A DNA stretch of 64,000 nt from Lophium mytilinum (Eukaryota). Under the pieces are notes generated by a model. It made no database searches, had not been told where the DNA came from, and saw only the letters and a list, made by a program, of their open reading frames with translations. Shown here piece after piece: positions 9,955 to 58,440 of the stretch (position 1 is its first letter; every line of letters starts with the position of its first letter). Location of the stretch: NCBI GenBank assembly GCA_010093605.1, contig MU004193.1, positions 467,321 to 531,320 of the forward strand. The letters run 5' to 3'. Made by a program: the position numbers and the translations under genes.

Positions 9955-11135
9955 CACGATCCTATCCTCTCTGCTTTCAATCAGCAATCAACGGAGATCC
10001 GGTTGAGTGGCCACATTCTGAATGACAACATGCCACCTAATGGGGGCCTTATATCTGAAACCCGAGGCGTCACAAATTCGCGTGCACCTTCTCCCCCGCT
10101 ATGTTTTCGTACCAACTGGTATTTCTTGGTCACATGGTCAAACAGCCCTTTTCGTGCTTCCAGCCAATAGGATAAATTTTCACTCGTCGGATTTCGAAAT
10201 TTTGTGTGGTACCGAAAACCTCGAATCGATATGCACGTCAGAGTCCAATCTTAACAGCGGCTACGTACTGCCCAAGACTTCCACTTCTTGTGACCCTCAG
10301 GGTGTGTCGTATGCTGTGGAGCCTACGTGTCAGTCCCAATATGTCTCCCAAAGGCCTAACCTTATTAATGCCACATGCTTCAAGAACCAACTCAAGGCTT
10401 AACTCTAAGACATCTACAAGCTTCAAAGCCTAGGAGAAGGACGTTTCCCTGCCAGCCATAGTCGATTCCGCGTAGGCGTGAAGCTCCAATAGGTGTCTTG
10501 CATGAGACTCGAACACCTGAGGCGAGGACAGCAGAAGAGACATGCAGCAACCTAAGGGTCAACGAATGAAGCGAACCACACCATGGCGATGTGAATTGAC
10601 ATGATAGACTGAAGATATTGACGTGAGATCGGATAATCCGCTTGCAGAAAAAACCTCAACAGCAACATGGTAGTGCTACGGCATAATCCACAACAGGCCA
10701 AGGTGAAGAGAGTAAACCTTAAAGCCTCCTTATGCTCCTTCCCTTCCTGGTAGCACCGAGCCCGTCAGCACATACACAGTGCTTCGACGTCAACATCTTC
10801 CAGAGCTTCAAGCCCGCTCTTCGACTCCGACTTCCAGATGCCGGATTCTCCCTAGCACCACGAACATCTCAACCACCTCCACCCTGTTTACCACCGATGA
10901 TCTCTCCGGTGGCATGCTCGCCGTTCCTGTGCCCGCCGAGGAGCCTGTCCTCGACGTCACCGCCGGACTCGCCAAGCGCGGACATATCTACGGAATTACC
11001 ATCTCAGATGATGGCATCAGCATCATCTCCACGTGTTGCCACAACTCTCGAAGCCCATTCACACAGATAGACAAGCTGTGGCCGCGCGACTTGCCTACTA
11101 ACCTATCCCAGTAAATGCGGGGACAAAAGGGGGGT

Positions 11136-14100
11136 TCAGGCGCCCTACCGGCCCGCAACTTAGCTCAAAGACGTTTCGCCGATCCCTTTAGGAGTCACCG
11201 TTTTTAAGCCTTTTTAAAGCACCCAGTCTAGTCTTGCATTAGCGCATAGCCGGAGTTAGCGCTTATAAGGGGCCCCCTACTAAACTAAGACCTCTAAAGT
11301 GCTAATATCTAATATATAATTATGCATACTATAATAATAAAATATTAATATATTTTATTTTTAAAGCTATTAAGTAAGCTATTAAGCTATATATAAGCTA
11401 TATATTATATAGAATATCTAGAAATATAGTATATAGCCTTAGGGGCTTATAGATAGCTATATATTATTAGAAAACTCTATATAGCTAATTTTATATACTA
11501 GTTCTTTACCTATTATACTTATTAGCTATAATTTTCTCTCTTATTATACTAAGAGCTTAAAAAGTATCTAAAAGAGCACCTAAAAAGATACTAAAAGTAC
11601 TATAAAACGCACTAAAAAAGGGCCCTCTCTATACTATACTAGGTGCGCCTATTTCTCTTACCTAGTAGCCGCCTATTATTCCTAAGGATTATATTTCCGG
11701 GCCGGATTTCTATACTAGAGGCTAGCCGCCGAGGCCCTTAGTAGCTAATAAAAAAGAGAAGAAAAAGAAGAAGAAGCTTATAGCTAAGCTATATTAAGCT
11801 AATAAGTTTACCTCTCTATATAGGCCTAATAAAGAGAAAAATAATACTACTAAGCTATAAGAGCCTTAACTTATTAAGAACCTACCTACTATATCTATAA
11901 GCTAGATTTCTATAGCTTAAGTTAATAAAATTCTATTAAAAATTATTACTAGCACTCTACCTATAAGCCTTCTTATAGCTACTACTAAGGCTAGAGAAAT
12001 TATATACTCTAAGGCCTATTTACTACGCTATTTAAAGTAATTTAGGCCGCCTAAGGCCCTAGAAGAATAGTAAGAGGCTAAGGATATTTATAGACTTAAT
12101 AAGAGAGCTAAGAATCTTAATAAGTATCTTTCTAGGGGTTATAGTTCTAGATAGAACTTACTATAGCGGATTTTTAAGCTACTATTCTCTCTAGAGCTTT
12201 TTAAGTATTATAGAAAGGCTATAAATGCATATATAGCTATATAGCTATATACTAAGAATATTAATTTAAGTAGATAATAGAAAGGTATAAAGAAAAGGGC
12301 CTAGAAGAATATTAGCGCCGCTAAGCTAATAATTTAGGTTAGAATTATTATCTATATTAGAGTCTTCTAGCCGCTAAGAATAGAGAATATATAGAATTAA
12401 AGAGATAAGTAGCTAGTATATATAATTACTAAGTATATAAGCTACTATAGGTAGAAGTAGATTAAAAGATATTTCTATATTTACCTAGTAAGTTTTTAAG
12501 GTGCAAGGCTTATAATATTACCTTACTAGGTAGTAGTGTATAAGTAAGCCTTTTAATATTATAACTAGCTAAGCTTAATTTAAGCTTATTTTCTAACTAA
12601 TTAAAATTATAGAATTAATCTGTATCCGGCGCCGCTAGTATAGCTAAGAAACTGCTAAGACGCGTCCCTCTATTTAAAAAGCTTTAATTCTTTATAATAA
12701 TACTCTAAAATAACTTTTAATACTATATTATATCTAGATCTATAGTCTTAATTAATAAGATAATAGTATACTTTACCGGCCAAAGCTCTTACACTATTAA
12801 AATACCCGGAAAACCTATTTCTAAGAGCTATAAGATCTTTTCTCTCTACTAGTATAGCTACTACTACGCCTTCTAGTTTACCTCTAGAATTAATAGAGTT
12901 TACAGCCTCTCTTAATATACTTAAGCCCTTAACTATACTCTTAATACTACTAGTAAGGCTATATTTAAGCTTTATATATTACTACCTATTTATTTATAGC
13001 GCTATATTCTCTACTATAATAACTACTTTACTAATATTAATCTCTTTAGCGCCTTAAGGTCTATTAGAATTACTATCTATAGTACTATAAGGTCTAACTC
13101 TATATATTATCTAGCTGCGTATAAAGCTATAGATAAAGTAAAATTATAGCTTTCTTTTAATCTATTCTCTAGAGTAGTTATAAGAGCTCTAGGCTTAGAG
13201 AAGGACGTCCTCTTAATTATATAGTAAGATAAGAATCTTATAAGATTTCTAACTACTACTTATAGTACTTAGCTATTAAACTATAATAAGGTTCTTTGCC
13301 GCCGCCCGTATAGTTATACGGCGTAATTAAAGAAGATTATTACTAAGATATAGAGTAATAATCCTATTAAATCTCTATATCTTTCTTAGCTTTTAATTAA
13401 CTATAATAACTAGATAGAGGGTGTTAATATTTATAATTAGCTGCGCAGCTATTATAATACCTAGATTATAAGTATATATATTTAAATACCGCTCTTCTTC
13501 TAGGTATTAGATATAGTAATTATTAATACCTATATTCTCTCTAAAATTATATTCTAGATATCTAGAAGTATCTTTTTAATAGTATATAGAAGATTCTATA
13601 TATAATTAGTATAGAATCTTATTTAAATTAGCTACTAAATAATATAAAAGAATGCAGGGCCTCTAATAGGCCTTATAATATTCTTAAAGTAATATAAACT
13701 AGGTTAATTCTAGCTAAATTATATAGGCTACTACTAAGGCGCTCGCCGCCCGTATATTACTAGTAAAACTCCTCTTCTAGCTATATGCCTGCTTAGTAGA
13801 GGCTATATTATCTAGAGAGAAGTATACTTAGACTATAAAATATAGCTATACTACTATTTTTATAGGTAGAAATAGGCTTTTAAGTTACTAGGCTTTTAGA
13901 AAAGAATAAGAACTATATATAGCTATAAATTATATCTTTTACTACTTTATAGGTAGTATATAGAGCTCTTTTATAAGCCTTAGCTATATAAGAATTAGAT
14001 AGAAAGGCTATAGTAAATAGAATAACTATATAATTCTATAGTAAGGCTGTATAGCTTTAATTTAGGCCTATTCTAGCCTTAATACTATTAAAAATTAGCT

Positions 14101-14387
14101 ATATATAACTTTTTAAAGATTCTTAATATATTAGATATAACTTTATAATTTACTATTATTAACTTTAGTAGTAAATGCTAATAAATAAGAAATTTAGGCC
14201 CCTTGCTTAGTACTATATTATATTAGGCCTACGGCTTACGTGCACAAACTAACGCTAGCAGTTGACTTACCATGGGATACGTCGAAGACCTAAGACACTT
14301 TTGCGCGTCAAAGAACGCATAGTGGGATAAGTGGGTCCGTCAGGCGCCCGACCGGCCCGCATTTAAGCTCGAGGCCGTTGTGCCGAT
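11136..14387 (+). mobile_element. RIP-degenerated piggyBac-superfamily DNA transposon (boundaries approximate)
   Basis: Abrupt AT-rich, TpA-rich block at ~11200-14230, the signature of RIP. Conceptual translation retains piggyBac transposase motifs (next feature). Flanked by 48-bp imperfect direct repeats at 11136-11183 and 14340-14387. Confidence 0.9.
11546..13983 (+). pseudogene. piggyBac-type (DDE_Tnp_1_7-like) transposase pseudogene with one intron
   Basis: 12739: SIVLINKIIVYFTGQSSYTIKIPGKPISKSYKIF, a RIP version of S.DE.MV.FTGRS.HT.K.P.KPI..GYKIF. 13402: YNN*IEGVNIYN*LRSYY, equivalent to YN..MGGVD..DQLRSYY. Also *IPLFF*VLD..IINTYIL and a C-terminal Cys-rich domain eroded to Tyr codons. 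A phase-0 intron GTAAGT(12488)...CTAAC...TAG(12612) reconciles frame 2 with frame 1. The start is inferred (ATA from ATG). Confidence 0.88.
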
Positions 14388-14975
14388 ACGTTGCCGATAC
14401 GTCGCATAGTGTCTCACTATACTGCGTTATGAACGCATACGAAGCTTGCAGTCGAAACGTGATTGCTCCGGACTCAGGGAAATAAAGGAGGGGTCGGACG
14501 GACTCGATAGGGTCTGGCGAAACGTTGGGAATCTAAATCATTTTGTCCGTCGGTCGGCGACGAGTGGTATGGCCTCGAGTGGTATGGCATAAATCCCTAC
14601 TTTGGTCAGGTCGATCTGTTTTATCCCATGCTGGACATTACTATGCTCCCAGGATGCAAGAAAACTTTAGGTTATGGATACCCCTTGCAGCGACGTTTCG
14701 TAGTCGCCTGAGACAACATGCACATGAATCACAATCGCTTGCGCGAACATCACAATGAAAGTAGAGCCGAAGAAAAATGTTTATGAATGTATTTGAACAT
14801 TTTACATTTTGGAGGATAACGAGCTGTCCAAAGCTACCGGGTATCTAGAAGAAGTGATATACATACAAACGTTTTCGTTTTAATGGGCCTGCCAAAATGC
14901 ATGGGCCTGCCAAGGGGATGCCATGTGTTTTAGATCGACTAAAAGCAGCATAAGACGCCGGAAACAACATATCAC

Positions 14976-42902: not shown

Positions 42903-44466
42903 ATGGCTTCGGCCGTTGTCCACAAGCTGCTCCACCATGCGCGCTCGCATTCCGAGGACCACCGCGACGAGTCGCCCCAGCCCGATCCGCAGGAACTGGA
43001 CGCCATGGAGCGCGTTCGCGACGACGAGAAGCGCATGCTCGCCCAGTGGGAGGACACCAAGCGCCCCCTGAGCCCGAGCCAGGTGCACATGGACGCCAGC
43101 CGCAAGATAGTCGGACATTCGTCGCGAGTCCTGCGCCAGCAAGACTTCGAGCTCATCAAGACGCTGGGAACCGGTAGGGCGCGCCCCGGCTGCTTGGAGA
43201 CTCCCGTTGCTGACAGGAACCGCGATGCGCAGGCACTTTTGCGCGAGTATGGCTCGTAAGCCTCACGAACCCCAAGGACGGCGCTGCAAACAAAGTCTTT
43301 GCATTGAAGATTCTGCGCAAAGTCGACGGTACGTAGTCGATCGCTGCGTCGCGGCAACCTGCAGCCCGCTGACCCGCGTCTTCTGCCAGTCATTCGACTG
43401 AAACAGGTCGAACATGTCCGCAACGAACGAAATGTGCTTGCTAGAGTTGCAGGACATCCCTTCATCACGACTATGGTGGCCAGCTTCCAGGACCATGATT
43501 CTCTCTACATGCTGGTGAGCGATTCGCAGCATCTCGACTACTGCGATAGCAATTGCTGACACTCTGTGCTAAACAGCTCGACTATTGCCCTGGAGGCGAA
43601 GTCTTTAGCTACCTTCGAAGAGCTCGACGATTCAACGAGCCAACGTCCCAATTCTACGCCGCCGAGATCGTTCTCATTCTAGAATTCTTGCACGAGAGTG
43701 AAGGAGTCGCATACCGGGATTTGAAACCAGAGAATATATTGATAGACGCCCAGGGGCATTTGAAACTCGTAGATTTTGGGTTTGCGAAGAAGGTGGACAA
43801 CAGTACGTGTTCGTGGCTGCATTTGCTACGTTCAAGGCTTATCATTCGCAGGGGAAACATACACACTGTGTGGAACGCCAGAGTATCTCGCGCCGGAAGT
43901 CATAAGAAACACTGGTATGTTGTTGCTATCGCGCAATTGAGACCGTAAGTACTGATTGGCTCCAGGACATGGCTGCGCGGTCGACTGGTGGGCGTTTGGC
44001 ATTCTGGTCTACGAATTTTTAGTCGGACAGCCACCATTCTGGGACCAGAACCCCATGAAGATTTACGAACAGTAAGCCCCCAACTCCCCCGTCTCATTGC
44101 AGCGCAGATCTCCCCATGTACTTCCCAACTCACACCCCCCGCAGAATCGTAGAAGGCCGCGTGCGCTACCCCTCCGCCATGTCCCCCGACGCGCGCGACC
44201 TCATCGCCGGCCTCTGCACCGTCGACACCTCGAAACGGCTCGGCAACATCAAAGGCGGCGCCAGCGCTGTAAAAGAACACCCCTGGTTCCGCAACATCGA
44301 CTGGGACGCGCTCTACCACCGCCGCGTCCAAGGGCCCATCGTGCCGCACCTGCGCGGGCCCGCCGACACGCGCAACTTCGACGAATACGAGCCAGAGCCG
44401 GAGGGGCGGGAGGAATACTCGGCCGACATGCGCGATAGATGGGAAGAGAGTTTCAAAGATTTCTAG
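42903..44466 (+). CDS. pkaB: cAMP-dependent protein kinase catalytic subunit (second, PkaB-like isoform)
   Basis: [58 protein letters not shown] and the C-terminal FKDF* hydrophobic motif; multi-exon. Isoform assignment is by eye. Confidence 0.88.
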
Positions 44467-44968
44467 AGTGGCATAAAGGCTTTTGGATCGCGGGCCCTTG
44501 GATATTCGTTATTGCGTCTTTAAGAAGAAGGGATGATGGGTTTTTACGAGAGGATGGGGGTTTTCTTCATCGCTACCTAGCTTCGGCGCACTTGAGGGTT
44601 GGGGGTGGTTATAACGCGCGATGGCTGTGAATGGCATTACGATACCTGGATGTACAGTTCATATTGAATAGGGCTTCTGAGATTGTATATTAGTACTTTG
44701 CATTTTTTCAGTTTGTACCGGTTTACGATGGAGTGCTGAGGTGCGGTCGTGTGTACGCCTGTCTTCCACTGCTTACCGTGCCTCAACAACTTTCCTAGAG
44801 CCCATAGATATGGGTCTCTATCTTATTCATATGTCCATAAATGCATTGAAGTACCACAAATGACGGCAGACAGGTGTATTAAGCGCAGTGTCATCATATC
44901 AAGTCAGAGAGATGGCATAATCGAAGAACAGAGATCAGATTCAGCAACAAAATCTAGTATACAAGTTC

Positions 44969-45340
44969 AAGCTCTCCATCAGTGTACGACAGTCCCCAGG
45001 AGCACCGATTGGGCGCTGTGAGAGACTGAACCTTTACGTACACTTGTAGAGAATAGAAGTAGACCATCCAGCGCCTTCGCAAATAGAACCAAGCTCTCCA
45101 TCAGTATACGACAGTCCTCAGGAAGCACCGATTGGGCGCTGTGAGAGACTGAACCTTTACGTACACTTGTAGAGAAAAGAAGGGATATCATCCAGCGCCT
45201 TCGCAAATAGGCCAAAGCCGTCCATCAGTATACGACAGTCTCCAGGGAGCACCGATGAGATGCTGTAAGAGACCGAACCTTTACGTACACTTGCAGAGAA
45301 AAGAAGAAAACCATCCAGCGCCATCGCAAAAAGAACAAAG
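44969..45340. repeat. Tandem repeat, 3 x ~123 bp, immediately 3' of the coiled-coil gene
   Basis: Units start at 44969, 45091 and 45215 (…CCATCAGTRTACGACAGTC…AGCACCGAT…GAACCTTTACGTACACTTG…CATCCAGCGCC…). Confidence 0.92.
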
Positions 45341-45358
45341 AACAAAGAACAAAGGAAA

Positions 45359-47191
45359 TCAGTAGTAGAAATTCTGATCGATACCGGCCCAATTCTCCGC
45401 GCTCTGGATCACCATGGCACCGAAGCGCGCCAGGTTCTCGCCGAAAGCGGACTCGCCGACGCCGTAGCTGAGGGGAATGAGGCCGAGGAAGTGGCGTCCG
45501 CTGCCGAAGGCACCGTTGCGACCGCTGAGGGAAGGCGTGTTGCTGGATTCCCACTCCTTCAGAGAGCGGTAGAGGTAGAGGCAGAGCAGAGAGAGGAAGA
45601 GGGAGAGCCACTGGTAGATGTGCAGGTGGCTGGTGGAGGGCTTGGGAGATCCGGTGAGGATCGTGAATGGGGCTGGCGCATCGGTCGGAGCCTCGTCGAC
45701 GGTAGGCTCGATCTCTGCCTGCTCGATCTCGGCCTGCTGGAGCTGAGGAGCGGTGGATTCGACGGGAGGAATGTCAATCCCTCGGATCTCGCTCATGGAG
45801 AAGGTAGGAGCATCGGTCTGAGCCTCGTTGACGGTAGGCTCGGTCTCTGCCTGCTGGAGCTGAGAAGCTGCAGGTTCGACGGGAGCAATGCTAATCGCTT
45901 GGATTTCGCTCATGGAGAAGACAGGGGCCGGGGCGGTGACAGGAGGAGTGTCAAGCTGTTGAATCTCGCTGAAGTAGAGGACAGCAGCCGGGGCGATGAC
46001 GGGAGAGGTGTGGACGCTCTTGATGGGGCTGAACGTGAGGATTGGGGCTTGGGCTGCGATGGGTGGTTGGTCGTAAATGGTCTTGAAGACAACCTCGAAC
46101 TGCTCGGGCTCTTCGTCATCCAAAGACTCGCCGGTGTCATTGAGCTCATCTTCTAATGATCCTTGAGTCGTAGAACCAGTAGTAGCGACGTTAGTACCCA
46201 TAGCCTTCTCGAGCTGAGCGTGCAATTCGCGGATCCGTTCGTCCTTGGTGGCGAGTTCGCGGTCTTTCGCCTCAAGCTCATCGTCCTTTGCCTTCAAGCT
46301 GCTGTCCAGGGATTTGCCTGGAGTCATGGCTTTCTGGAGATCGTTCTCGAGGCGTAAGATCAAGGCATCCTTGACAGAGATGATGGGGTCCTTGCCTTCC
46401 AGATCCTGCTTCAGTTGCTTGACATCGCCCTCCAGCTCGGCGATCATGGCGTTGGCGTTGGGAAGTTCGTCAGCTGAAGCCTGCAGAGTTTCCATCGTGG
46501 TCTTCAACTCCTTATTTTCGGTCTCAAGGCTGTCGTGCTTCTGTTCAAGGTCGTCCCAATCTGTCTCCCATTGGATGATGGCATCGTCCTTGAAGGTGAT
46601 GGCTTCCTCAAGTTTGGCAATGTCGGCATTCAGGTTGGCGATGGAGTCGATTGCGTCAGCACATTCAGCGCTTTTGTTGCCAAGTTCCTGGGTTTTGCGC
46701 TCAAATTCCTCCTCAAGCGTGGAGATATGGGCGTAAAGCGTCTCATTCTCGGTGGTTTTGGAGCCGATTTCGAGGGCTTGATCGTGGACATTGTTCTTCA
46801 ACTCGGCGATCTGAGCGTCTCTCTCCCTGATAGTGGCAAGAGCGTCCTTCTTCTGGTCCTGCAGTGGCTGATTCTCGCTCTCCAGGTACTTCACATGCGC
46901 TTCTAGGTTGGAGATCTCGACCTTTTGACGTGCAACCTCATCCTCCATCTCAGAGGCTTCTTCTTGTGCGGCCTTTAGTTCCTCCTGGGCTGCCTCAAGT
47001 CTGGTTTGCGCCGCTTTACCCTCTTGATAGTAGAGATTGAGGGTGTTTTGGAGGTTTGAAGTTAAGGATTTCTCACTAGAGAGCTGTCGCTTGGTGTCTT
47101 CCAGCTCGCTTTCAGAAAGTCTGATGTTCGAGTCGACGTTGAACGTGAACAAGGGCGCGCCAGCGCGCCGGGGTTGGCTAGCTCCCGACAT
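45359..47191 (-). CDS. Coiled-coil protein with internal F/L-x-F/M-S-x-I...P-V repeats and a C-terminal transmembrane helix
   Basis: Intact, intronless 610-aa ORF with ~300 aa of heptad-rich acidic coiled coil; repeats PILTFSPIKSVHTSPV, AVLYFSEIQQLDTPPV, PVFSMSEIQAISIAPV and PTFSMSEIRGIDIPPV; TM segment IYQWLSLFLSLLCLYLY. Confidence 0.85.
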   Translation of the reverse strand: MSGASQPRRAGAPLFTFNVDSNIRLSESELEDTKRQLSSEKSLTSNLQNTLNLYYQEGKAAQTRLEAAQEELKAAQEEASEMEDEVARQKVEISNLEAHVKYLESENQPLQDQKKDALATIRERDAQIAELKNNVHDQALEIGSKTTENETLYAHISTLEEEFERKTQELGNKSAECADAIDSIANLNADIAKLEEAITFKDDAIIQWETDWDDLEQKHDSLETENKELKTTMETLQASADELPNANAMIAELEGDVKQLKQDLEGKDPIISVKDALILRLENDLQKAMTPGKSLDSSLKAKDDELEAKDRELATKDERIRELHAQLEKAMGTNVATTGSTTQGSLEDELNDTGESLDDEEPEQFEVVFKTIYDQPPIAAQAPILTFSPIKSVHTSPVIAPAAVLYFSEIQQLDTPPVTAPAPVFSMSEIQAISIAPVEPAASQLQQAETEPTVNEAQTDAPTFSMSEIRGIDIPPVESTAPQLQQAEIEQAEIEPTVDEAPTDAPAPFTILTGSPKPSTSHLHIYQWLSLFLSLLCLYLYRSLKEWESSNTPSLSGRNGAFGSGRHFLGLIPLSYGVGESAFGENLARFGAMVIQSAENWAGIDQNFYY

Positions 47192-47439
47192 TGTGGAGCA
47201 CGTGACAAAGTGCCAAGAAGTCTAAAAAAATGCAAAATTTTACAAACAAGTTTAGCGATGCTGGTGATTGAAGAAGAAAAGAAACTTCAAATCAAGAGCG
47301 GGAGGTGTAGATATATACTCCACAGCCTACACAGAACAATAGCTATTCAACACAATAGGATTCATCACTCACCACAATAGCTATTGTCCGGCTGCACAGA
47401 CCCTCCGAAGTAATCCCGAACAGCCGCACGATCCGCATC

Positions 47440-48375
47440 ACGTGATAACCTTCACCGCCCGCATTTGACGTCTCATAACAAAGCTCGATGAACACCAAGT
47501 GGCGGTCTGCCTGATGCCGTCTGAGGTGGCCCGAAGGGCTCTTAGGCGCATGCAAATTCCCCTTTTCCGATTCATGATGATACACTAGGGGCCCTCAAAC
47601 GGTGACAACTAGGTGTATATGAAGTCGTTCTACAGCTGCGATATTAGAGACGTTACAGAATGAGTTGCAGAGTCTCATGTAATTTACACCGCCCTGATTT
47701 GATGTCTTATAACAGGGCTTATTGTATAGTATTTGGCGGTCTGCCTGACGCCGTCTGAGGTGGTCCAAAGAGCTCTTAGGCGTATGCAAATCCCCCTTTT
47801 CTAATTCACCATAATATGCCAGGAGCCCTCAGACGGAGATGGCCAAGTGTTCATAAAGTAGTTCTATATTTGCAATATAAGAGATGTTCCAGAGTTCATC
47901 GCATAGTCACGTGTTAATAGACACTACCCTAATCGGACGTCTCATACCGGGCTTTGTTGAACAGCTAGTGGCGGTCTGTTTGACGCCGTCTGAGGTAGCC
48001 TGAAGAGCTCTTAGGCGTATCCAAATCTTCCTTTTCTAATTCACTATAATACAACAGGGGTCCTCAGACGGTGACAGCTAAGTGTATACAAAGTAGTTCT
48101 ATATCCGCAATATAAGAGATGTAATAGAATTGTTTATAGATCCATATGTTGATATACACCATCCCTCCGATTGGCGCTTGTTGGTTCAAAATTGGCAGTG
48201 TACTCTGACGCCGTCTGAGGTGGCCCGAAGTACTCTTAGTCGTATCCAAATCACCCTTTTCTAATTTAAAAATGATGTACCAGGGGCCCTTAAACGGTGC
48301 TAGTCAAGCTTATACAGCCTAGATCCCTTTCTACGATATTGGAGACGTTGAATTTATGAAAATAATCACCGAGTG
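47440..48375. repeat. Tandem array of a ~234-bp unit (family A), 4 copies
   Basis: Core GCCGTCTGAGGT(G/A)G at 47516, 47750, 47985 and 48210, followed by CTCTTAG…CAAAT…CCTTTTC in each unit. Confidence 0.92.
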
Positions 48376-48504
48376 TTGAAATTCGGGTGGTTGGGCCCCA
48401 GCCCCCTATTTACCAGCCACCTTGACCGGTGTATATCGCTAGCCGCTGTGCCGTCCTCACCATGAAACTTCTTAACAAGCTTCACTCCCTCCCTGAAAAT
48501 TGAC

Positions 48505-48900
48505 ACTTTCAGCTTCGGCGGCGACCAAGCTCCTCCGCGCCCTTTCAGCTACGAAACATATGTACCCGCCACAAGTCTGGCGCTCGGAGAGTACGACTTG
48601 AACCCATTCTCACGCCTGGGAGACCCCACACCGCCGCCAATGGAGGAGCAAATCCGCCGTCAGAACACGCAGATTGAGAGCCTAGAGCAGCAGTACGTGA
48701 AGCACCTGGGGAGCGATCAACTTCGGCGGCGACCAAGCTCCTCCGCGCCCTTTCAGCTACGAAACAAATGTACCCGCCACAAGTCTGGTGCTCGGAGAAG
48801 GATCAAATGGAGGAGCAAATTGCTCGTCAGAAGACGCAGATTCAGAGCCTAGGAGAGTACAATTTGGACCTCTTTTCGCGCCTCGCAACCTCCCCCACGC
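48505..48900 (+). repeat. Duplicated coding-like fragment (family B), period ~208 bp
   Basis: CTTCGGCGGCGACCAAGCTCCTCCGCGCCCTTTCAGCTACGAAACA at 48513 and 48721; ATGGAGGAGCAAAT…CGTCAGAA.ACGCAGATT also duplicated; degenerate copies near 51488 and 52962. Confidence 0.85.
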
Positions 48901-49079
48901 GCGTTCAAATATATCTACATCTCCCACTCTTAATATCAATTTTCTTTGCTTCTTCATCACTAGCACCGCAAAATTTGATTGTAAGATTTTGCATTTTTCC
49001 ACTATCCGCGGCACCGTCACGTGTCCTCGCAACGGCCCCACCCCGGGCAGTCTCCGGGTTGGCCCCTTAGAAAGGCCCA

Positions 49080-49655
49080 GAGTAGTTCTATATCTGCATT
49101 ATGAAAAATGTATTAGGATAACAGATACCCCTTGGATTGGCGCTTGCTGATTCAAAATTGGCAGTGTACTCTGACACCGTTTGAGGTGGCCTAAAGTGGT
49201 CTTGGTCGCATCTCAATCACCCTTTTCTAATTCACAATAATATACTAGGGGGCCTTAAAAGGTGATAGCTAAGTGTATATAGAACAGTTCTATGGCTGCA
49301 ATATTAGAGATTTACAGCTTACAGATCCTCACATTGATATACACCACCCCTGAAATTGACGCTTGTTGATTGAAAACTGGCAGTACGATCTGACGCCGTT
49401 TGAGGTGGCACGAATTGCTCTTAGTTCTATGCAAATTACCTCATTCTGATTCAAAATGATATGCTAGGGGCTCTCAAATGGTGCTAGCTAAGTGTATACA
49501 GAGTAGGTCCATCTCTACGCCGTTCGAAACGTTGACGTTACGAGAATAATCACCGAGTCACTTGTTGTTATGTTCTCCACCACCCCTCAAATTGACGCTC
49601 GTGAAACGAAAAGTGGCAGTGTGTTCCAATGCCGTCTGAGGTGGCCCGAAGTGAT
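49080..49655. repeat. Second array of family-A units (~2.5 copies); further partial copies at ~50605-50690 and ~51130-51300
   Basis: Core motif at 49176, 49395 and 49631, and degenerate at 51177. Confidence 0.88.
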
Positions 49656-49860
49656 TGCTGGCAGAATCGCCAGGAAGTGAACGGAATGAGCTGAACATGA
49701 GGATATATTGATGAGACTACGTGAGCTTATATAGGTTATGCCAAGAAAGCTACGTATGCGTGCCATATATATAGGCTTCCAGCCGATATACCAATCCACG
49801 GACCAAAGCTATATATAGAGGGCCTAGCCCGCAATCACGAAGAGCTGTCACCTCTCTCGC

Positions 49861-50609
49861 TTTCACGTTCAACGTCGACCACAACGTCAGAATCCTGAGT
49901 GCCCTAAAGGCGTGTCCAACAATGTCAGGATCTAGCCAAGACCGGCGCGCTGGCGTGGCCTTGTTCACTTTCAACGTCGACTCAAACGTTAGATTCTCTG
50001 AAGGTGAGCTGTAGGAAACCAAACGACAGCTTACCAGTGAAAAATCTCTAACTGCAAACCTCCAAAACAAGGCGTGGCTCTAACCAAGAGCGGCGCCCTG
50101 GCGCGCCCGATTTCCCTTTCAACTTCGACACAAACATCAGATTCTCTGAAAGTGAGCTGGAAGACACCAAGCGACAGCTCTCTAGTGAGAAATCTTTAAC
50201 TGCTAACCTCTAAAACACCCTTAACCTCTACTACTACGAGGTCAAAGCCAATCGATAAGCTATTACCTCTTTTCACTCTACATTCAATATCGACTCTAAC
50301 GTTAGATTTTCCGAAAGTAAGCTAGAGGAGACCAAGCAACAGCTCTCTACTTTGACTGCCAACCTGCAAAACACCCTCAACCTCTACTACTAGGACGGAA
50401 AAGCCGCGCAAACTAGAGTCGAAGCAGCCCAGGAGGACCTGGAGGAGCTGAAGGCCGCGCAGGGAGAAGCCTTTAAGATAGAGGACGCCAGACGCTAGCT
50501 TTACTAGTAGTAAAAAGTCCTTAGCTGCCAACCTCTAAAACCCCCTCAATTTCTACTACTAGGAAGGTAAAGCCGCGCAATCTAAAATCGAGGCAGCCTA
50601 GGGGGAGCT
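49861..50609 (+). pseudogene. Five tandem, truncated, stop-containing copies of the 5' end of the 45359-47191 gene (inverted relative to it)
   Basis: 49922 reads MSGSSQDRRAGVALFTFNVDSNVRFSEGEL*ETKRQLTSEKSLTANLQN versus the gene's MSGASQPRRAGAPLFTFNVDSNIRLSESELEDTKRQLSSEKSLTSNLQN. Further copies at 49861, ~50077, ~50270 and ~50490; most stops arise by CAA>TAA or CAG>TAG. Confidence 0.9.
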
Positions 50610-51599
50610 CTTAGTTATATCTAAATCACCCTTTTCTAACTCACTACACTAAACAAGGGAGCCTTGAACGGCGCCATCCAAGTGTATACATTATTAAGGT
50701 CTAGAAGCTGGAGATTACCTAGAGTTGTCTTCCGGCGTTTTGCAAGGTAAATACTACTGTCTCAGGTCCCCTAGCACCGCGAAAAGTTCCGGCCTACGAT
50801 GTCACGTTCTAGAAGCTTCGACTTAGATGGTGGCATTTCACAACGTCTTCGCCCGGTAATATCGGCGTCTAAAGTGGCCTTACGATGCTATCTTATTACA
50901 AGCACAATGTAAAGGCTCTAATACTGTGATTTGAACCTCGGCCTTTCAAGACTTTCGGCACGGCAATACAGCTGCCTGAGGTGGTCTCGCTACGTCAATT
51001 GAATCGAGAGAGGATGGGAAAGGTTCGAGACCGTGAATTGGACGGGGTAGATCTGGCGCGGTTTGAAAGAGTGGGTTTATTTCTGGAAGTCTTGCAGTAT
51101 CATTATGAAGGCAGATGGTAATATTGCCAGCCCTGATTTTGACGCTCATTGAACGAAAATAGCAGTCCATTTTGACGCATTCTGAGGTGGCCTGGAGAGC
51201 TCGTTGGATGTCAGGAATAGCCGTTTCCTGAATTACAATAATATACTAAGGGTTCTTAATTTGTGCCAGCCGTCTATATATAAGGTAGATCTATAGCTAC
51301 AGTACTAAGCCGTACATCTAGGCACATGCATCTGTGACTGCTTGGTTTTAATGTTGCTCACTTAACACCGCAGTAAGGGAATAGCTGGTTGCTAAGCAGC
51401 TACATAGTCAAGAGACAGTCTAATCTACAGTGATAGAATTTTAGGAAATCGACGTCGCTTTTGGATCTTAGGGTGCGGATCTTTCAACTTTGGTGGCGAC
51501 CACCCTCCTCCACGCCCATCTAGCGACGAGACCTACGCCCCGGCTACAAGTCGGGCCCTAGAAGAATACATGTGCATATAATAGATCTTCCAACTTTGG

Positions 51600-51960
51600 G
51601 AGCTCGCAACCTCCCCCACGCGCGTTCAAGCATATATCTACATCTCCCGCTTTTGTTCTTAACTTCAAGTTTCTTTTCTTCTCCAACCATTAGCACCGCA
51701 AATAAACTTCTTGGCACTTTTTTACGTGTCCAACAACGCTTGGCGCGCCCTCTTTCACATTGGACTTCGATAACAACGTCAGAACTCCGGAAAGCGGGCT
51801 GGAGGACACCAATCGCCAGCTTGCTAGTGAGAAGTCCCCCAGCCTCCAAAAAGCCTCAACCTCTACTACCAGGAGGGTGAAGCCGCTCAATGCAGAGTCG
51901 AGGCAGCGCAGGCGGAGCTGAAGGCTGAGCAGAAAGAAGCCTCTAAGATGGGGGAGTAAT
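51600..51960 (+). pseudogene. Inverted copy of the promoter/5'UTR plus first ~85 codons of the coiled-coil gene
   Basis: TATATCTACATCTCCCGC…AAGTTTCTTTTCTTCT…ACTTCTTGGCACTTT…ACGTG matches the reverse complement of 47192-47320 and is followed by a frameshifted coding copy. A promoter-only copy lies at ~48905-49025. Confidence 0.85.
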
Positions 51961-52240
51961 TAAAAGCCAAAAGGTTCAGATTGCGAGCCCGGAAAAGCAT
52001 ATAGAGTATTGAAAAAGAGACTAATAATCGCACACCCCCTAATTCCTCCATCTATACCCCCCTTTCCCCCCATCCTACAATGTCTGGGCCTATTCAAGAC
52101 CGACGCGCTGGCGCGCTTTCTTTCACGTTCAACTTCGACCACAACGTCAGAGTACGTGGGGTGAGAACGGGTGTGTAGTTAGTGGCGCCCTAGGAGCCGG
52201 AGATGTAGGTAGGGCAGGCTATGTAGAAAAACGGAATTAG

Positions 52241-52917
52241 TATTTACACACCCCCTTTCTTTTCGTAGACACGCATCCCTTTTAACAAACACACCCCGTT
52301 CCGTCTTTTCTTCTGATGGGCTAGAACAGCGCGGAACTTCGCCCGGAGCTCTACTCTCACGTTGATCTATGCCGTATGTAAGGCTACACAGCCTCTCCAT
52401 TACATTACACATTCTTTACTTTTACTGCAGTGTATATAGGCTGTTCCATCGCTACCTACATGCCTAAGTGCCTAGGAACATGCCAAACTATCAAAACCTC
52501 ACCTTGTTACAGCTCCTTTGCAACATTCCTGGCCTTGATCCATTGCCGCTTGATGCAAATAACCCTCAACCGTTGCAAGATACTTAGCTTGTCACCGCTA
52601 TGCCCTTTTTCCGACTGCGGAAGCGGCTGAGGCTTAGGCTGAGAATGAGCGTTATCTTGCCGCTGTACTGTCTTCTTTAGTGGTGCTCCCTTCGACCGTG
52701 GACGTGTACTGTGGAGGCGGAGGATGAGGGTGTAAGTTTTTGTGGCCACGCCGCATTTTGACAGAGCCTTGAGAATTAGTGAGCAACTTGAGCGAGGGAA
52801 TCGGAGGTTCCGTAGCATTGATCCAGGCCAATTAGAAGATCAGACAAGAGGGGGTGTACGTGAAGTTAAAAGCCGTGTCCGTGGAGGGAAAACGGGGTGC
52901 ACAGTTATCCCTCCCCC
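52241..52917. mobile_element. Degenerate non-autonomous TIR element related to 53848-54668
   Basis: Shared internal blocks (GCCTCTCCATT 52391/53994; CCGCTGTACTG 52660/54369; TGTGGCCACGCCGCA 52741/54491) and a TIR-like right end (…CGTGGAGGGAAAACGGGGTG…TTATCCCTCCCC). Confidence 0.7.
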
Positions 52918-53130
52918 GTTCTTGATTTCAAGTTTTTTTCCTTCTTCATTTACTACCTCAACTTCGGCGGCGATTAAACTCCTTCGCGCGCCTTCCTTTA
53001 TGAAACTCACGTCCCCGCTCGAGGTCTGGTTCTTGTAGACTGCGACTTGAACCTGTTCTCGCACCTCGCAGTCCTCACCCCGGATCAAATCGAGGAGCAA
53101 ATCGCACGGCATAAGGAAACTCCTGGCCAA

Positions 53131-53710
53131 CTTTGTCTATGTGAACACCTGCTAGATAAGCCACCCCTCACGGTGACGTCGAATGATCAAGACTAGAGCC
53201 TATGCCCTAGCTTGCAATTGCGGGCTACTTTTGTCTAAGTGAACACCTGCCAGCTGGGCTACCCCTTACAGCGACATCGAGCGATTAAACTTGGGATCTG
53301 TAGTTGTATATCCGGGGTTTTGTGCTTTTGACTTGGTAATAACATACACCTCTGAAACTCGCTAGAAATGCCTGGGAGGTGGAACTACCTATTGATGGAC
53401 TAAACACCTACTGGCAGGGCCACTCCTTACGATGAAGTTGAACGGTCGAGAGTGAAGCCTGTAGTGGTATATCCAGGTGTTCATGCTTGTGACTCGGTAT
53501 TGAGACGTATATTTAGGCACACCTTAGAATTGCATAGCGGACCAGGCTAACTTTTGACTTACTGGACACGTAGTAGCTTGGCCTCCTTACAGTGGTTTCG
53601 GCCGATCAAGAGTGAAGCTATCAACTAGTATATGCGGGTGCCCGAGACTGAAACTCCTAGCTACCTTTGGCTAAATGAACGCTTGCTAGCTAGTCCACCT
53701 CTAACAGTGT
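53131..53710. repeat. Degenerate tandem repeat (family D), units of ~100-160 bp
   Basis: Motif CTTT(T)GTCTA.GTGAACACCTGC…CCAC.CCTTAC…GATCAAGA recurs at ~53131, 53228, 53388, 53550 and 53664. Confidence 0.75.
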
Positions 53711-53847
53711 CAGACAGCCCCTCGCGTTCGATTTGCTCTTCCATCTGGGCCGGGGTGGGGTGTTGTAAGGCGCGAAAGGAGATTCAAATCATATACTTCT
53801 AGGGTTAGACTTGAAGCTGGGACATAGGTCTACACAGTACTTTAGAA

Positions 53848-54668
53848 GGGGACTGATAATCCTACACTAGGTTTTTCCTCTACGTACGCCCGGTTTTCCC
53901 TGCGCATACACCCTTTTACATCTAATCTTCTAATTGGGACTCGGATTAGTGCTCCGGCGCTTACGCATTCGTACTTTATGGCAAGGCTATATAGCCTCTC
54001 CATTTTATCAAGCATTTTTACCGTTTTTAGCAGCCTATATATAACCGCGCGCTGCGCGTAAGGCCGTAGATAAAGCTATATATTAGGCCGTGCGTGAGGC
54101 CGTATATAAGGCCGTACGTGAAGCTGTATAGAGAACCGCACTTATTATAAGGCTGTGCAGTATACCCGCTTTACTATATATACTTCCTAGTTCCTATATA
54201 TATAAGCCATTATATTACTATATATATACCCACGCGCCTAGAAGTGTACTGAAATAGTTAAGACCTTACCTTATTACGGCCTCTCCGCATCAAACCTGGC
54301 CCCTCTATATTACTGCTGCCTCTATCGCCGCCTAACTCTAGATAAGACTAAGGATAAGCGCTATTCTACCGCTGTACTGCCTTCTTCTATAGTGCTCTAA
54401 GGAGTTATAGGCCTGTAGTAGTAGCGGCTAGAGCGCTATAGTAAGAGGTGCATTATAGAGGAAAAGATTAGGGACAACGTTGTAATTATTTGTGGCCACG
54501 CCGCACTTAAAGAGAGTATTTAGAATTAGTAAGAAACCTAAGCAAGTAAATTAGAGGCCTTAGAGGACCTCTCTGGACTGATTTGAAGATTAGATGTAGT
54601 AAGGGTGTATGCGCAGGAGAAAACGGGTGTACGTGGAGGAAAAACCCGGTGTAGAATTATCAGTCCCC
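53848..54668. mobile_element. MITE / non-autonomous Mutator-like element with ~84-bp TIRs
   Basis: Left TIR 53848-53930 (GGGGACTGATAATCCTACAC…CTGCGCATACACCCTT…ACATCTAATCTTC) and right TIR 54585-54668 are near-perfect reverse complements. Flanks CTTTAGAA / ATTTAGAA (7/8) form a candidate TSD. The interior is RIP-like with short ~12-bp repeats. Superfamily is inferred. Confidence 0.85.
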
Positions 54669-54995
54669 ATTTAGAATTGCCTTTTCTAATTCACTGTCAG
54701 TTAAGATGTAGCCTGATCCCCACTGGAACGACATTCACATTGTGTTTGAAGTGTTAACTTTGGGCGCCCCAATATACAACTCTACAGGCTCCAGTCTTGA
54801 TGGGTCAACACCACTATTAGAGCTGCCTTGAAGAGCTATTAGGTATGCGCTTGCTTTAGTGAATGTTAGACTGGATATAGAAGTGGACATGGCTAAAGCG
54901 CACCATTACCTACCTCCAGCTTTGCGGATCTCTAGGCCTACACTCCCCAGCTACGTCTCCAAAACCTAGCATCCCAAGCTTAAGTTCCCTTAGTC

Positions 54996-56047
54996 ATGGC
55001 GGCGGAGGCCAGCGCTTCCCTTAAAGGCTTCCGAAAGGGTATTCGGAGGTATGCCTAGATCTCCCATAAACGTAAGAGTTGTACTAACACTGCCAGCTTA
55101 TACACCACTGAGCACTACTCCGACCTCGCGATCGTCTGCAGGAAGGATACCTACGAAGTCCAAAAAGCAGTAATCTGTCCGCGGTCGGCCGTCTTCGCAA
55201 AGGCATTGCGTGGTCCGGGCAAAGTACGTGAACACAGCACCAAGAAACACAAGAATATACCACTGTTTGGGGGACAAGCGTCTAGGGGTAGCGCGGTTGA
55301 TGAAGGTCGACCACGTCCATTTTCTAGCTTTAGCCGCATCGCTTCAAAAGCCTGAAATGCTTGAGGTCTATGGAGGCCCCCAAGGTCATGCTAGCGCCTC
55401 AAGCTAAGTGAAAGCGGTGCCAAAACACTAGAGAATACGGCGTCAAAGCGAGTAAAGGTGCTTATCGTAGCTACGACCAGCTAACGTTGGACTAGGAATC
55501 AGAAGAAGTGGAGATAGATCTTTCCGTCGAGGACCCCAAGATGCTGGAGAGGATGATCTGCTTCTTCTATCACCTGGATTACCTCCCTACATCGCCCAAC
55601 AGTTTTCTCCAGCGGCATTCCGGCCAAAAGAAAGAGTATATCTCCGGAATGTGTCCCTGCGTCTCATCTCTCGAAGAACACGACATCGACTTGGCCTGGA
55701 GGCGGGGAACCTTCTGCGTCAACCACACGGCCCATAATGTGCTCAAGATTCACGCTTTGATGTACGCGATGGGCGATAAGTACGGGTGCTCAGACCTCAA
55801 GATTATTGCTAGAGCCAAGTTCGAGGCGTTCTTGGACTGCTCTTCGGGTTGCTCGGAGGTAGCTAGAGTCATCCCGATTGTCTTCGGAACCACGCCAGAT
55901 TCTGATTTGGGCCTCCGGAACCTTATCGTCGAAGAAATCGTAAAGAAGGACTACCTTGCATTCGAAGCCATGGAAAACGCCGTGGGAAAGACTGATGGCT
56001 TGCCGTTGGCGATATTGAAGGCCATGAATTCGCATTCAATCAAGTAA
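54996..56047 (+). CDS. BTB/POZ-domain protein
   Basis: Exons give LYTTEHYSDLAIVCRKDTYEVQKAVICPRSAVFAKAL|ESEEVEIDLSVEDPKMLERMICFFYHLDY…IHALMYAMGDKYGCSDLK…TTPDSDLGLRNLIV; two introns. Confidence 0.85.
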
Positions 56048-58440
56048 GCGGACACCACGAAAGCAGAGCTGCGACAAAGTGGAATACCTTAGTTTGGGTA
56101 TAGGCTCCAGTTTTGCACTGTAAAGGAGGCACTGCAAAGGAGGCCCCAGCGAGCAGTTATCAGCTTCTATGCTGTACCTCAAACTAGGTGTGATGTCAAG
56201 TTTTAGACAGCGTAACTTGAACTTCCTCTTGACGAAGAGATATCCTCGCGATGGGTCTGCCTTTGACAATGGCATCCATCCTGCAAAAGCGACATTCAAG
56301 CAGTAATGTTCGTATGCCTAAACTCATGGCCTAGTACTGTAGCTCGGTTTCAAATTAGAACATGTCTCCACCGTAAGTTTTTTTCCCCACAACCCTAACC
56401 ACGGAACGAAAGAGCATCCACGGACCCAGAACGACAGTAACCCACAGCCCCGCCGCACGAGATGTCGTATGTCGTCGCATAGCCCCCAAAGTCTCGACCC
56501 ATCCCGTCACATAACGAAATGAAGAGCTATGAATAGGTCCGAAATCGATGGCGAGGCGGAAGGGCGTGATGAGTTTCGTGGTTGGGGCTGGAAGCTACTC
56601 GGAGAGCGAAGAAGAAGATGAAAAGGTATGGCTGGCCGTTGCAGTCTGGTTGACTATCCTTCAACCTAGTGCCTACCTTTCCTTCGTTCACAATCCCTAT
56701 TCTCCAGCCGTAAAACCCACCTCGGACACCATCGCATAGGTAGTAGCCCCACCGTCCATCCCCCCCAAAAAAGCGAGTCATACCCGTCCCCCTCTTCTCA
56801 ACCCTCGGTACAACTCCCCGCTGTTGGACGCCTAACCGCCAACCACAACCCCTGCACACCTCATTGCGAATACCCACGAATTAACCCTGAAACCGATCAA
56901 TCCCGCCCGCACGTGCCCTGACACTTGACAGCTGCAACCCCCCTGGCCTTGTCCATACCACCTCCCACCCCGACAGCGCCGACCGACTGACTTCAGGCCA
57001 CGATGCTGGGTGGCGGGAGGGACGCCTGCCTACGTACACCACCACCACCACGACGCCTTGCCGCGCGCCTGAAACTGCCACGATGGCAACACCGATCGCA
57101 GCGACGTGGTGGCGGCGGCGTCGCCGGGTCTCAGACCGCGAGAGGCATTGGACGTGGTCGTGGTGTGGTGGGTTGAGTACATATATCGGTGAACCCTGGA
57201 TCGAATTAAGGTTAGGGGAGTGGGGCGGGAGTGTTTCAGAATTTTGCCATGGCCCTGGCGGATGAGTCCGTGGTTCGGCGCGGTCGGCAGGCTAGTGAGC
57301 AGTCGCGTGGCAAGCGGGAGAGCGTGTGCTTGTGCTGAGATAGGTAGGTACGAAGTAGATGATGTAGGGACAGCGATGTTGGAGTCGGTTGGACTGTCTG
57401 TGAAAATTGGGCGAATCGAAGAGCGGGACTGGAAAGAATGTGAGAGGCGATGGGAGGTTCTAGTGTTTTATCGCGGATTAGGGCGCGAAAGTAAGCGAGT
57501 CAGAATCTTCCTGTCGTTATCAGTTGTGGAGAAGGGGGGTTGAGGCTGGGATGGTTGAGGTTGAGGTGCAGGGCTTGAGATTTTAGGGTCGTTGGCTACG
57601 TCACTTGGGACCTTCGTCATCCTTTTTCTGGGGTATGAATTTTAGAGATGATGGGACTCAAGGTGTGAAGGGGAACGGATTTGCCAGTTTTGGTCGATCG
57701 CGTCTTGGTCACCTAGGTACCAGGGACGGGCGGACCGTGATCTCACGTCAGCGCTTTGCAGTCTCGGTTGCTGGGTGCTGGGTGGAGATCGTCAACTCAA
57801 CCACGGAACCATGAAAAGATGGAGTTACACTCACTCGATTGAGATACTGGTACAGAAGTATCATGCAAACCTCTAAAAGGGTCGTTTTCAGATCCAAACA
57901 AGAAAGAGAGTACATCCTCTGACGTGGCCCATATTCGACTGAGTCCCTGCTCAATTCAGGAAGATGATCTGCATCTCATTCAGACTTTGCAAGATGAGTT
58001 CGAGCCACCATAGAGTGGTGAGAGAGTACCAATATATAGATTTGGTGTTCTGGAGATACCGCAGCATCGTTCCATGTAGCGACAGGAATCAAAATGTGGT
58101 ATCATACATTTCCGAAAGCAGACGCCGCCCAGTGCTTTTTGAGCGACTCCATTCGGAGTATTCCATCCCAGCGCGCCGGAATCATATCATATCATAATCG
58201 ATGTACCTGCCATCGACCTCGTACGCTTTCGCAAGTAATAGCAGAAATAGAATCAGCGTCGCGGCTCGCACGACGCTCGGTGGATGAATTCCCCCGTCTC
58301 AGTTACACATCCATAGATCGTTTTATCGCTCAAATGCCACTTCGCCTCGAGTTGGATGCTTGCCGCCTGCGTTTTGCGCACGGCACCTAGAAACCGCTAT
58401 TCGTAAAATGGATGCATCGGACCGTCGCAATTGAATTCGT

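Follow-up and report, generated by a model that had tools for sequence, protein, structure and literature searches.

In the 64,000-nt stretch of Lophium mytilinum DNA analysed here (the window: contig MU004193.1 of assembly GCA_010093605.1, forward-strand positions 467,321 to 531,320, numbered from 1 below), a mosaic of repeated modules at 44969-54700 lies around a single intact gene of 610 codons. We interpret this locus, at a probability of about 0.68, as the decaying remains of a single inverted partial duplication of the gene's 5' region, specific to this lineage and followed by nested local re-duplications. The fragments now present look like evolutionary debris, engaged at most in occasional short ectopic gene conversion with their parent, and the closest known kind is the duplicated (non-processed) pseudogene fragment found in local segmental or tandem duplications.

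The repeats are confined to this locus. Self-BLAST of the whole window (E<1e-5) gives 33 repeat pairs, all 33 inside 44.9-54.8 kb and none elsewhere, the best single pairs reaching E=2e-102, and 4,656 of the 9,732 bases of 44969-54700 fall in at least one pair; such clustering is far beyond chance. A repeat search of 44000-56000 yields 24 direct families and 12 inverted pairs, and Tandem Repeats Finder reports arrays at 44969-45340 (period 124, 3.0 copies, 87% matches), 47467-48130 (period 234, 2.8 copies) and 49931-50217 (period 148, 1.9 copies). From left to right the modules are three 124-bp units, the minus-strand gene with its upstream stretch P, four A units, two B units with P, two and a half A units and five C pieces, and then a partial A, a second partial A with B, P and C, a further C, the element E1, a P fragment with B, the D units and the element E2. 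Every C and P copy is inverted relative to the gene, and a collinear A-B-P order is seen twice (~48.0-49.0 kb and 50.6-51.7 kb). A first-pass annotation of the window had already proposed this layout, and Tandem Repeats Finder, repeat search, BLAST, tblastn and alignments together recover its module order almost exactly, including the three-copy repeat, the inverted orientation and the higher-order A-B-P recurrence; its description of a locus of repeated local duplication is likewise supported by the repeat pairs and the module map. The sole item not recovered is a C copy enclosed by terminal inverted repeats (TIRs), as searches with a 7-nt seed and with short-word BLAST found no inverted repeats directly beside the copy at 52077-52151 or flanking the other C copies.

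The debris of the gene's start and upstream DNA, interleaved with small transposons, spans ~7 kb beside the gene. Besides the gene's own sequence, it holds seven C, four B and three P fragments, placed as follows.

45359-47191, minus strand: the intact gene, an open reading frame of 610 codons plus stop
47226-47319, minus strand: P, the gene's upstream and 5' untranslated region (UTR) stretch, -35 to -128 relative to the ATG, the source of the P copies
48509-48716, plus strand: B1, open for 70 codons
48717-48881, plus strand: B2, adjoining B1
48882-49035, plus strand: P2 (48882-48998), in the opposite orientation to the gene's P, and a further ~35 nt homologous to the 5'UTR
49862-50609, plus strand: five successive inverted copies of the 5' end of the gene, 78-87% identical to it, four of them with stop codons
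49862-49891, plus strand: C fragment of 30 nt, from tblastn and repeat search
49911-50069, plus strand: C1, from the 5'UTR to codon 49 (codons 1-49), with a stop
50067-50248, plus strand: C2, codons 3-62, with a stop and its ATG lost
50280-50485, plus strand: C3, codons 13-84, with a stop
50508-50609, plus strand: C4, codons 38-72, with a stop
51484-51565, plus strand: B3, from repeat search and BLAST
51603-51702, plus strand: P3, followed by 5'UTR homology
51730-51955, plus strand: C5, codons 7-82, ATG lost, frameshifted, contiguous with B3 and P3
52077-52151, plus strand: C6, codons 1-25 (ATG plus 24), then unrelated sequence
~52905-52957, plus strand: P fragment, from alignment, with B4 directly after it
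52958-53114, plus strand: B4, with an in-frame stop

No copy, whether C or B, passes codon 106 of 610. Each is truncated and most of the C- and P-type copies have a stop, a lost ATG or a frameshift; stops or frameshifts are present in C1-C5 and in B4, leaving open frames only in B1 (70 codons) and C6 (25 codons). Identity between the gene and its C and P copies is 74-86%: the gene's P stretch (47226-47316) aligns with 48998-48909 at 84.6% identity by BLAST, and the inverted arms 47013-47194 versus 50067-50248 (182 nt) and 47044-47202 versus 49911-50069 (159 nt) are each 82% identical. As the homology runs from upstream DNA into the coding region, the copied unit is genomic DNA, and as it includes non-coding upstream DNA and 5'UTR, while outside the gene codons 107-610 give no tblastn match in the window, a partial genomic duplication fits. 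On the same grounds, an origin by retro-copying or as a family of full-length paralogues does not fit.

The B modules have diverged further, though they still look like coding sequence. Their tail is homologous to codons 82-106 of the gene (BLASTP E=0.11 in a single comparison, together with a convincing nucleotide alignment) and their head resembles codons 12-19, while nothing in the gene corresponds to the 38 Pro-rich codons between them; the B1 peptide finds no match at E<=0.1 in a protein collection made up of longer proteins. We read B as a probable older, more diverged copy of the gene's 5' region that reaches codon 106. The duplication that separated B1 from B2 is the youngest event at the locus, the two being 96% identical over 82 nt.

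The pattern of divergence is also informative. Changes from gene to copy comprise 67 C>T plus G>A, 66 T>C plus A>G and 87 transversions, a symmetric spectrum which means that repeat-induced point mutation (RIP) is not the main agent of decay and which indicates old neutral drift. We reject RIP as the main cause also on the changes private to single copies among C1-C6 (21 versus 13, with only 7 of the 21 in a CpA/TpG context); a mild C>T/G>A excess is seen in C3 and C4 only, and the TpA/ApT ratio is elevated in 50-51 kb and 52-55 kb, though the spectrum is symmetric. Short pieces can escape RIP. At 11 sites all copies agree with each other against the gene (6 synonymous, 4 non-synonymous, 1 in the UTR), from which it follows that the copies are one clade derived from one founder and that the gene stayed constrained.

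The parent is active. Our RNA evidence consists of unstranded contigs of one run (X3), identified as RNA because one contig lacks six GT..AG introns of the neighbouring kinase gene, and among these contigs an exact, ungapped contig of depth 238.7 covers 45147-47132, so the gene is expressed and is intronless over that interval. The array seems peculiar to this lineage, since at six loci that encode distant homologues (24-39% identity), three of which (L003, L005 and L006) include 1.4-10 kb of upstream flank, repeats occur within the gene only, with no such mosaic and no kinase/BTB synteny.

Taken together, homology of the non-coding flank, a lesion or truncation in every copy, and neutrally evolving copies beside a constrained, expressed parent are what duplicated pseudogene fragments display, as are linkage to the parent, copying of promoter, 5'UTR and coding sequence as one, nested sub-duplications and staggered breakpoints with a microhomology junction. 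That junction, between C1 and C2, sits in the alignments where the 5'UTR and codons 45-48 have a common CTCCA(A/C)AA-like string, a short microhomology that would be the signature of slippage or unequal exchange and not of a transposon end. The locus differs from the usual case in the unusually large number of partial copies of a single gene start packed into ~7 kb, in the inversion of all of them relative to the parent, and in their interleaving with a satellite-like array of 234-bp units.

We propose that upstream DNA, 5'UTR and the first ~106 codons would have been copied head-to-head beside the gene. Many rounds of local copying of this founder would have come next, through unequal exchange or slippage during replication where short stretches are alike. 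The repeats left behind have units of 148 bp (C1/C2), 208 bp (B1/B2) and 234 bp (the A array), and of 1-3 kb for the higher-order A-B-P(-C) repeat. Small non-autonomous TIR transposons also inserted, as E2 with its target-site duplication shows, and everything apart from the parent gene drifted neutrally, which gave the stops, lost start codons, frameshifts and deletions observed.

Several observations weigh against so passive a history. An exact RNA contig at 48737-49109 (373 nt, 0 differences) lies over B2 and P2 at a depth of 88.9, above that of the contig of the flanking BTB gene (49.4), and not all of the debris is therefore silent, although we regard this transcription as incidental at most. 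A perfect 41-nt tract unites C2 (50154-50194, plus strand) with the gene (47067-47107, codons 29-42) and is longer than permutation would lead one to expect (p=0.0027 for the local alignment and p=0.0002 for the multiple one, in which no other of the 17 pairs falls below 0.2); inside it gene and C2 have one base where C1, C3 and C5 have another. Short ectopic gene conversion would be its simplest reading, as a candidate only, and the copies may still be exchanging sequence with the gene. Parts of A, 49597-49833 and E1/E2 have extra genomic copies, judged by excess depth, joints and loose ends, and transposons may have had some part in building the array. The DNA runs whose contigs tile the locus are possibly the assembly's own source and so do not count as independent evidence, and we infer the age of the array, its ancestral state and the genome-wide distribution of its modules.

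An involvement of transposons could go as far as capture and amplification, i.e. transduplication of a Pack-MULE-like (Mutator-like element) or Helitron-like kind in which a non-autonomous element took up promoter and 5' end and multiplied locally. This we judge unlikely. A genuine multi-copy TIR family does reside at the locus (E2 with its 8-bp target duplication, and E1), the P fragment and B4 sit between E1 and E2, A-like sequence and 49597-49833 have other copies in the genome, and multiplication of gene fragments has a precedent among Dothideomycetes, one study documenting transduplication by a hAT element that bears a histone H3-like gene in Pyrenophora tritici-repentis (PMC3538342). Against it, tblastn of the protein detects nothing of the gene within E2, C6 and the other C copies have no inverted repeats beside them, so that the fragments do not lie between TIRs, and breakpoints are staggered and nested, with a microhomology junction and no fixed element ends. 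Over C, B and P (48.6-49.07 kb, 50.0-50.9 kb) the DNA contigs have a depth of 147-178, the baseline being ~150, which makes these modules single copy, with regard to matches of at least 85% likeness, and apparently not dispersed. Pfam detects no transposase, reverse transcriptase or helicase domain among the 67 stop-to-stop open reading frames of at least 45 codons in 47200-55300, in keeping with the first-pass annotation; their one match in total is the BTB domain of the flanking gene (55059-55298), and no helicase/Rep family is found, the Helitron terminal motifs (5'-TC...CTRR-3', hairpin) not having been searched for. A suggestion in the same annotation that rolling-circle or MULE-driven amplification could have left this debris is not supported, in view of the missing enzyme remnant, the absence of a gene fragment from E2, the single-copy depth of C, B and P and the C1/C2 microhomology. 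An assembly artefact, with repeats wrongly expanded or ordered, is a very improbable explanation, even if the DNA contigs break at 45030-45147, 48542-48737 and 54297-54625 and their runs may have supplied the assembly. The copies differ by 14-30% and hence are not collapsed or duplicated reads, depth is flat at ~150 across the C region, and the exact contigs of the two DNA runs include pieces of 1.1-4.1 kb that cross from one module to another (e.g. 50165-54297 and 47078-48542), while RNA contigs of a second study are exact at 47505-47845 (depth 5.3) and at 48737-49109.

Two further explanations would give the array a function. The inverted 5' copies, or the B2-P2 unit, could tune the parent gene by providing hairpin, antisense or small RNAs or by competing for promoter factors, which we consider distinctly improbable; a source of hairpin or small RNA was also among the proposals of the first-pass annotation. 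The arms of 159-182 nt lie 2.7-2.9 kb from the gene's 5' end and contain the perfect 41-nt stretch, the copied promoter/5'UTR region is transcribed at appreciable depth, and inverted duplication of pieces of a target gene is the classical model for new hairpin and microRNA genes in plants (PMC3237417). The locus has the inverted copies near the gene and the inverted arms of that model, but the arms are kilobases apart and ~82% identical, a low value for triggers of RNA interference outside the 41-nt tract, and most copies are direct repeats of one another. In addition, the architecture is absent from the six distant homologous loci, and the copies evolve with a neutral-looking spectrum. A functional bank of silent N-terminal cassettes diversifying the protein by gene conversion, raised by the first-pass annotation, is the least credible of the explanations considered. 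As in the silent-cassette systems of vlsE, pilS or VSG, an expressed gene has beside it, in opposite orientation, numerous partial copies of one of its ends, here of two N-terminal types (seven C-type and four B-type pieces), the 41-nt tract is one candidate for conversion, and the N-terminus evolves fast, alignment with the closest homologue beginning only at residue 74. Yet every cassette is truncated and most are broken by stops or frameshifts, their identity to the gene is merely 74-86% with no conserved recombination flanks, they bear their own promoter copies where those of a silent bank would be promoterless, and the 11 states common to the copies against the gene set them apart as a separate clade in which homogenisation is rare, leaving the 41-nt tract as the sole hint of exchange. 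Nor is the protein known as a surface antigen, and the host is reportedly a saprobe.

The evidence favours neutral debris over an undescribed system, for which the first-pass annotation had taken the locus as its best candidate. A partial duplication left to decay could still be less than inert, its 5' fragments acting on the parent through short conversion tracts that remodel the N-terminus, or through RNA (the B2-P2 unit, a hairpin or a newborn reading frame at 48768-49070). We would be surprised if this were so; a fungus would then have a gene that its own decaying partial duplicates regulate or diversify. On the reading favoured here, the locus is a well-preserved case of a partial duplication that was re-copied in place many times and then decayed, useful for the study of duplication mechanisms in a genome that runs RIP, its copies being short enough to have largely escaped that process. 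It is no pointer to a new biological system and would gain in importance if the fragments exchange with the gene or regulate it. The reading frame just named has an ATG and 100 codons (48768-49070, plus strand), combines the tail of B2 with promoter-derived sequence and lies wholly within the RNA contig 48737-49109; it could be a chance frame or a young chimeric gene. No X3 RNA contig covers 50005-50938 (C2-C4) or 53274-54207, which, with contigs of a single run, is no indication of silence.

The 610-residue protein belongs to an unnamed family of fungal proteins that have a coiled coil and, at the C-terminus, a membrane segment. Its N-terminus bears an FxF(G) motif, followed by a long coiled coil and internal repeats, and towards the C-terminus come a hydrophobic segment and a conserved tail of ~60 residues, a topology that we take to be reminiscent of tail-anchored coiled-coil proteins. 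Among 1.8 billion proteins, 54 cluster representatives match it at E<=1e-3, the best of them with 37% identity, and in an alignment with five homologues the coiled coil, variable Pro/Thr/Val-rich repeats, hydrophobic segment and ~60-residue tail make up a shared plan, the FxF motif being at the N-terminus in four of the six. Pfam gives only generic coiled-coil matches below the cut-off, and no curated family, for the protein, and only a coiled-coil match below the cut-off for the homologues P0001, P0003 and P0005. The Atlas contains the protein sequence letter for letter, its look-alikes there being generic coiled-coil clusters only, and exact look-up in the protein collection finds neither the 610-residue protein nor the product of the 100-codon frame. 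As the best homologue can be aligned from residue 74 onward only, the part copied in the array is the protein's fastest-evolving part. Within the gene, a tandem repeat at 45675-45928 (117-nt spacing, 76-89% identity) encodes 'FSMSEI...PVE...QLQQAE' segments, and homologues likewise have in-gene repeats in the corresponding region.

The remaining modules and elements of the locus are the following.

44969-45340, no strand assigned: 124-bp tandem repeat, three copies, just downstream of the gene's stop codon
47438-48374, plus strand: A array, A1-A4, units of ~234 bp, from Tandem Repeats Finder, repeat search and alignment
49116-49665, plus strand: A array of 2.5 units (A5, A6 and partial A7), from repeat search, BLAST and alignment
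50590-50690, plus strand: A8, partial, from repeat search, BLAST and alignment
~51110-51300, plus strand: A9, partial and diverged, from a repeat match at 51156-51202 and alignment
~52240-52915 (approximate borders), plus strand: E1, a diverged sister of E2 in the same orientation, seen as collinear short blocks
53118-53724, plus strand: D, a degenerate array of ~100-bp units, three from repeat search (53118-53190, 53216-53288, 53652-53724) and more by eye
53848-54668, no strand assigned: E2, a MITE-like (miniature inverted-repeat transposable element) non-autonomous element of 821 bp with 84-nt TIRs, 88% identical

The gene's RNA contig takes in at least 45147-45358, part of the 124-bp array, and this repeat, over at least that stretch, probably lies in the gene's 3'UTR. 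The nine A units align with a mean column identity of 61% and hold an internal inverted motif CTGAGGTGGCC...GGGGCCCTCAG. As structured RNA they were rejected: there is no Rfam match, and the consensus fold of the nine units is weak (-4.0 kcal/mol) with an unfavourable covariation term. A 40-nt core of A4 (48189-48229) is matched by RNA and DNA contigs from elsewhere, which continue as different A-like sequence, the RNA at a depth of ~190-270; an A-like unit is therefore expressed at another locus.

E2 is flanked by CTTTAGAA and ATTTAGAA, an 8-bp target-site duplication matching at 7 of 8 positions. Its depth of 806-1053 in 54208-54674 is a 5-7-fold excess over the baseline and up to 12 variant contigs are present, which establishes it as a true dispersed, multi-copy MITE-like element; with its small size, long TIRs, target duplication, multiple copies and the lack of any reading frame with a Pfam family, it resembles known MITEs. 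A duplication of 8 bp points to the hAT-like elements, but TIRs of 84 nt are long for hAT. E1 is 69% identical to E2 where 52731-52916 aligns with 54481-54668. Directly to the right of E2 (54669-54720) stands CCTTTTCTAATTCAC, also present in 5 of the 8 A units covering that stretch, which suggests that one more degenerate A unit was the insertion site of E2 and that A-like sequence reaches ~54.7 kb.

The locus lies, as the first-pass annotation had placed it, between a gene with a protein-kinase domain on the left, the putative PKA of that annotation, and one with a BTB domain on the right, both found with Pfam; three short exon or reading-frame pieces of these flanking genes gave no Pfam match, other exons having matched. 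The six introns of the kinase gene (43172-44145) are 49-73 nt long, and all are spliced out in the one RNA contig, of depth 717.8. Excess DNA depth is recorded at 44401-44867, 49538-50004, 53741-54674 and 56076-56542; a 2-4-fold excess with many loose ends at 44742-44879, 49597-49833 and 56076-56542 means that these stretches have further copies elsewhere in the genome. The dispersed flank repeats (44.6-44.97 kb and 56.05-56.6 kb), 49640-49860 and the 124-bp repeat have no similarity to the core modules A, B, C, P, D and E except for one 30-nt match (E=0.012), and no Rfam family is found at E<=1 in 44-56 kb. The window as a whole is fungal in character, with a GC content of ~50-58% and short introns with GT..AG ends, as confirmed by the spliced RNA contig, and the locus has a GC content of 47-49% against 53-57% in its flanks. 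Far to its left, at 11-14.5 kb, is an AT-rich island with 27-35% GC, TpA/ApT of 1.6-1.8 and (CpA+TpG)/(ApC+GpT) of 0.13-0.58, values which, for the stretch 11000-14500, appear typical of a RIP-mutated repeat.

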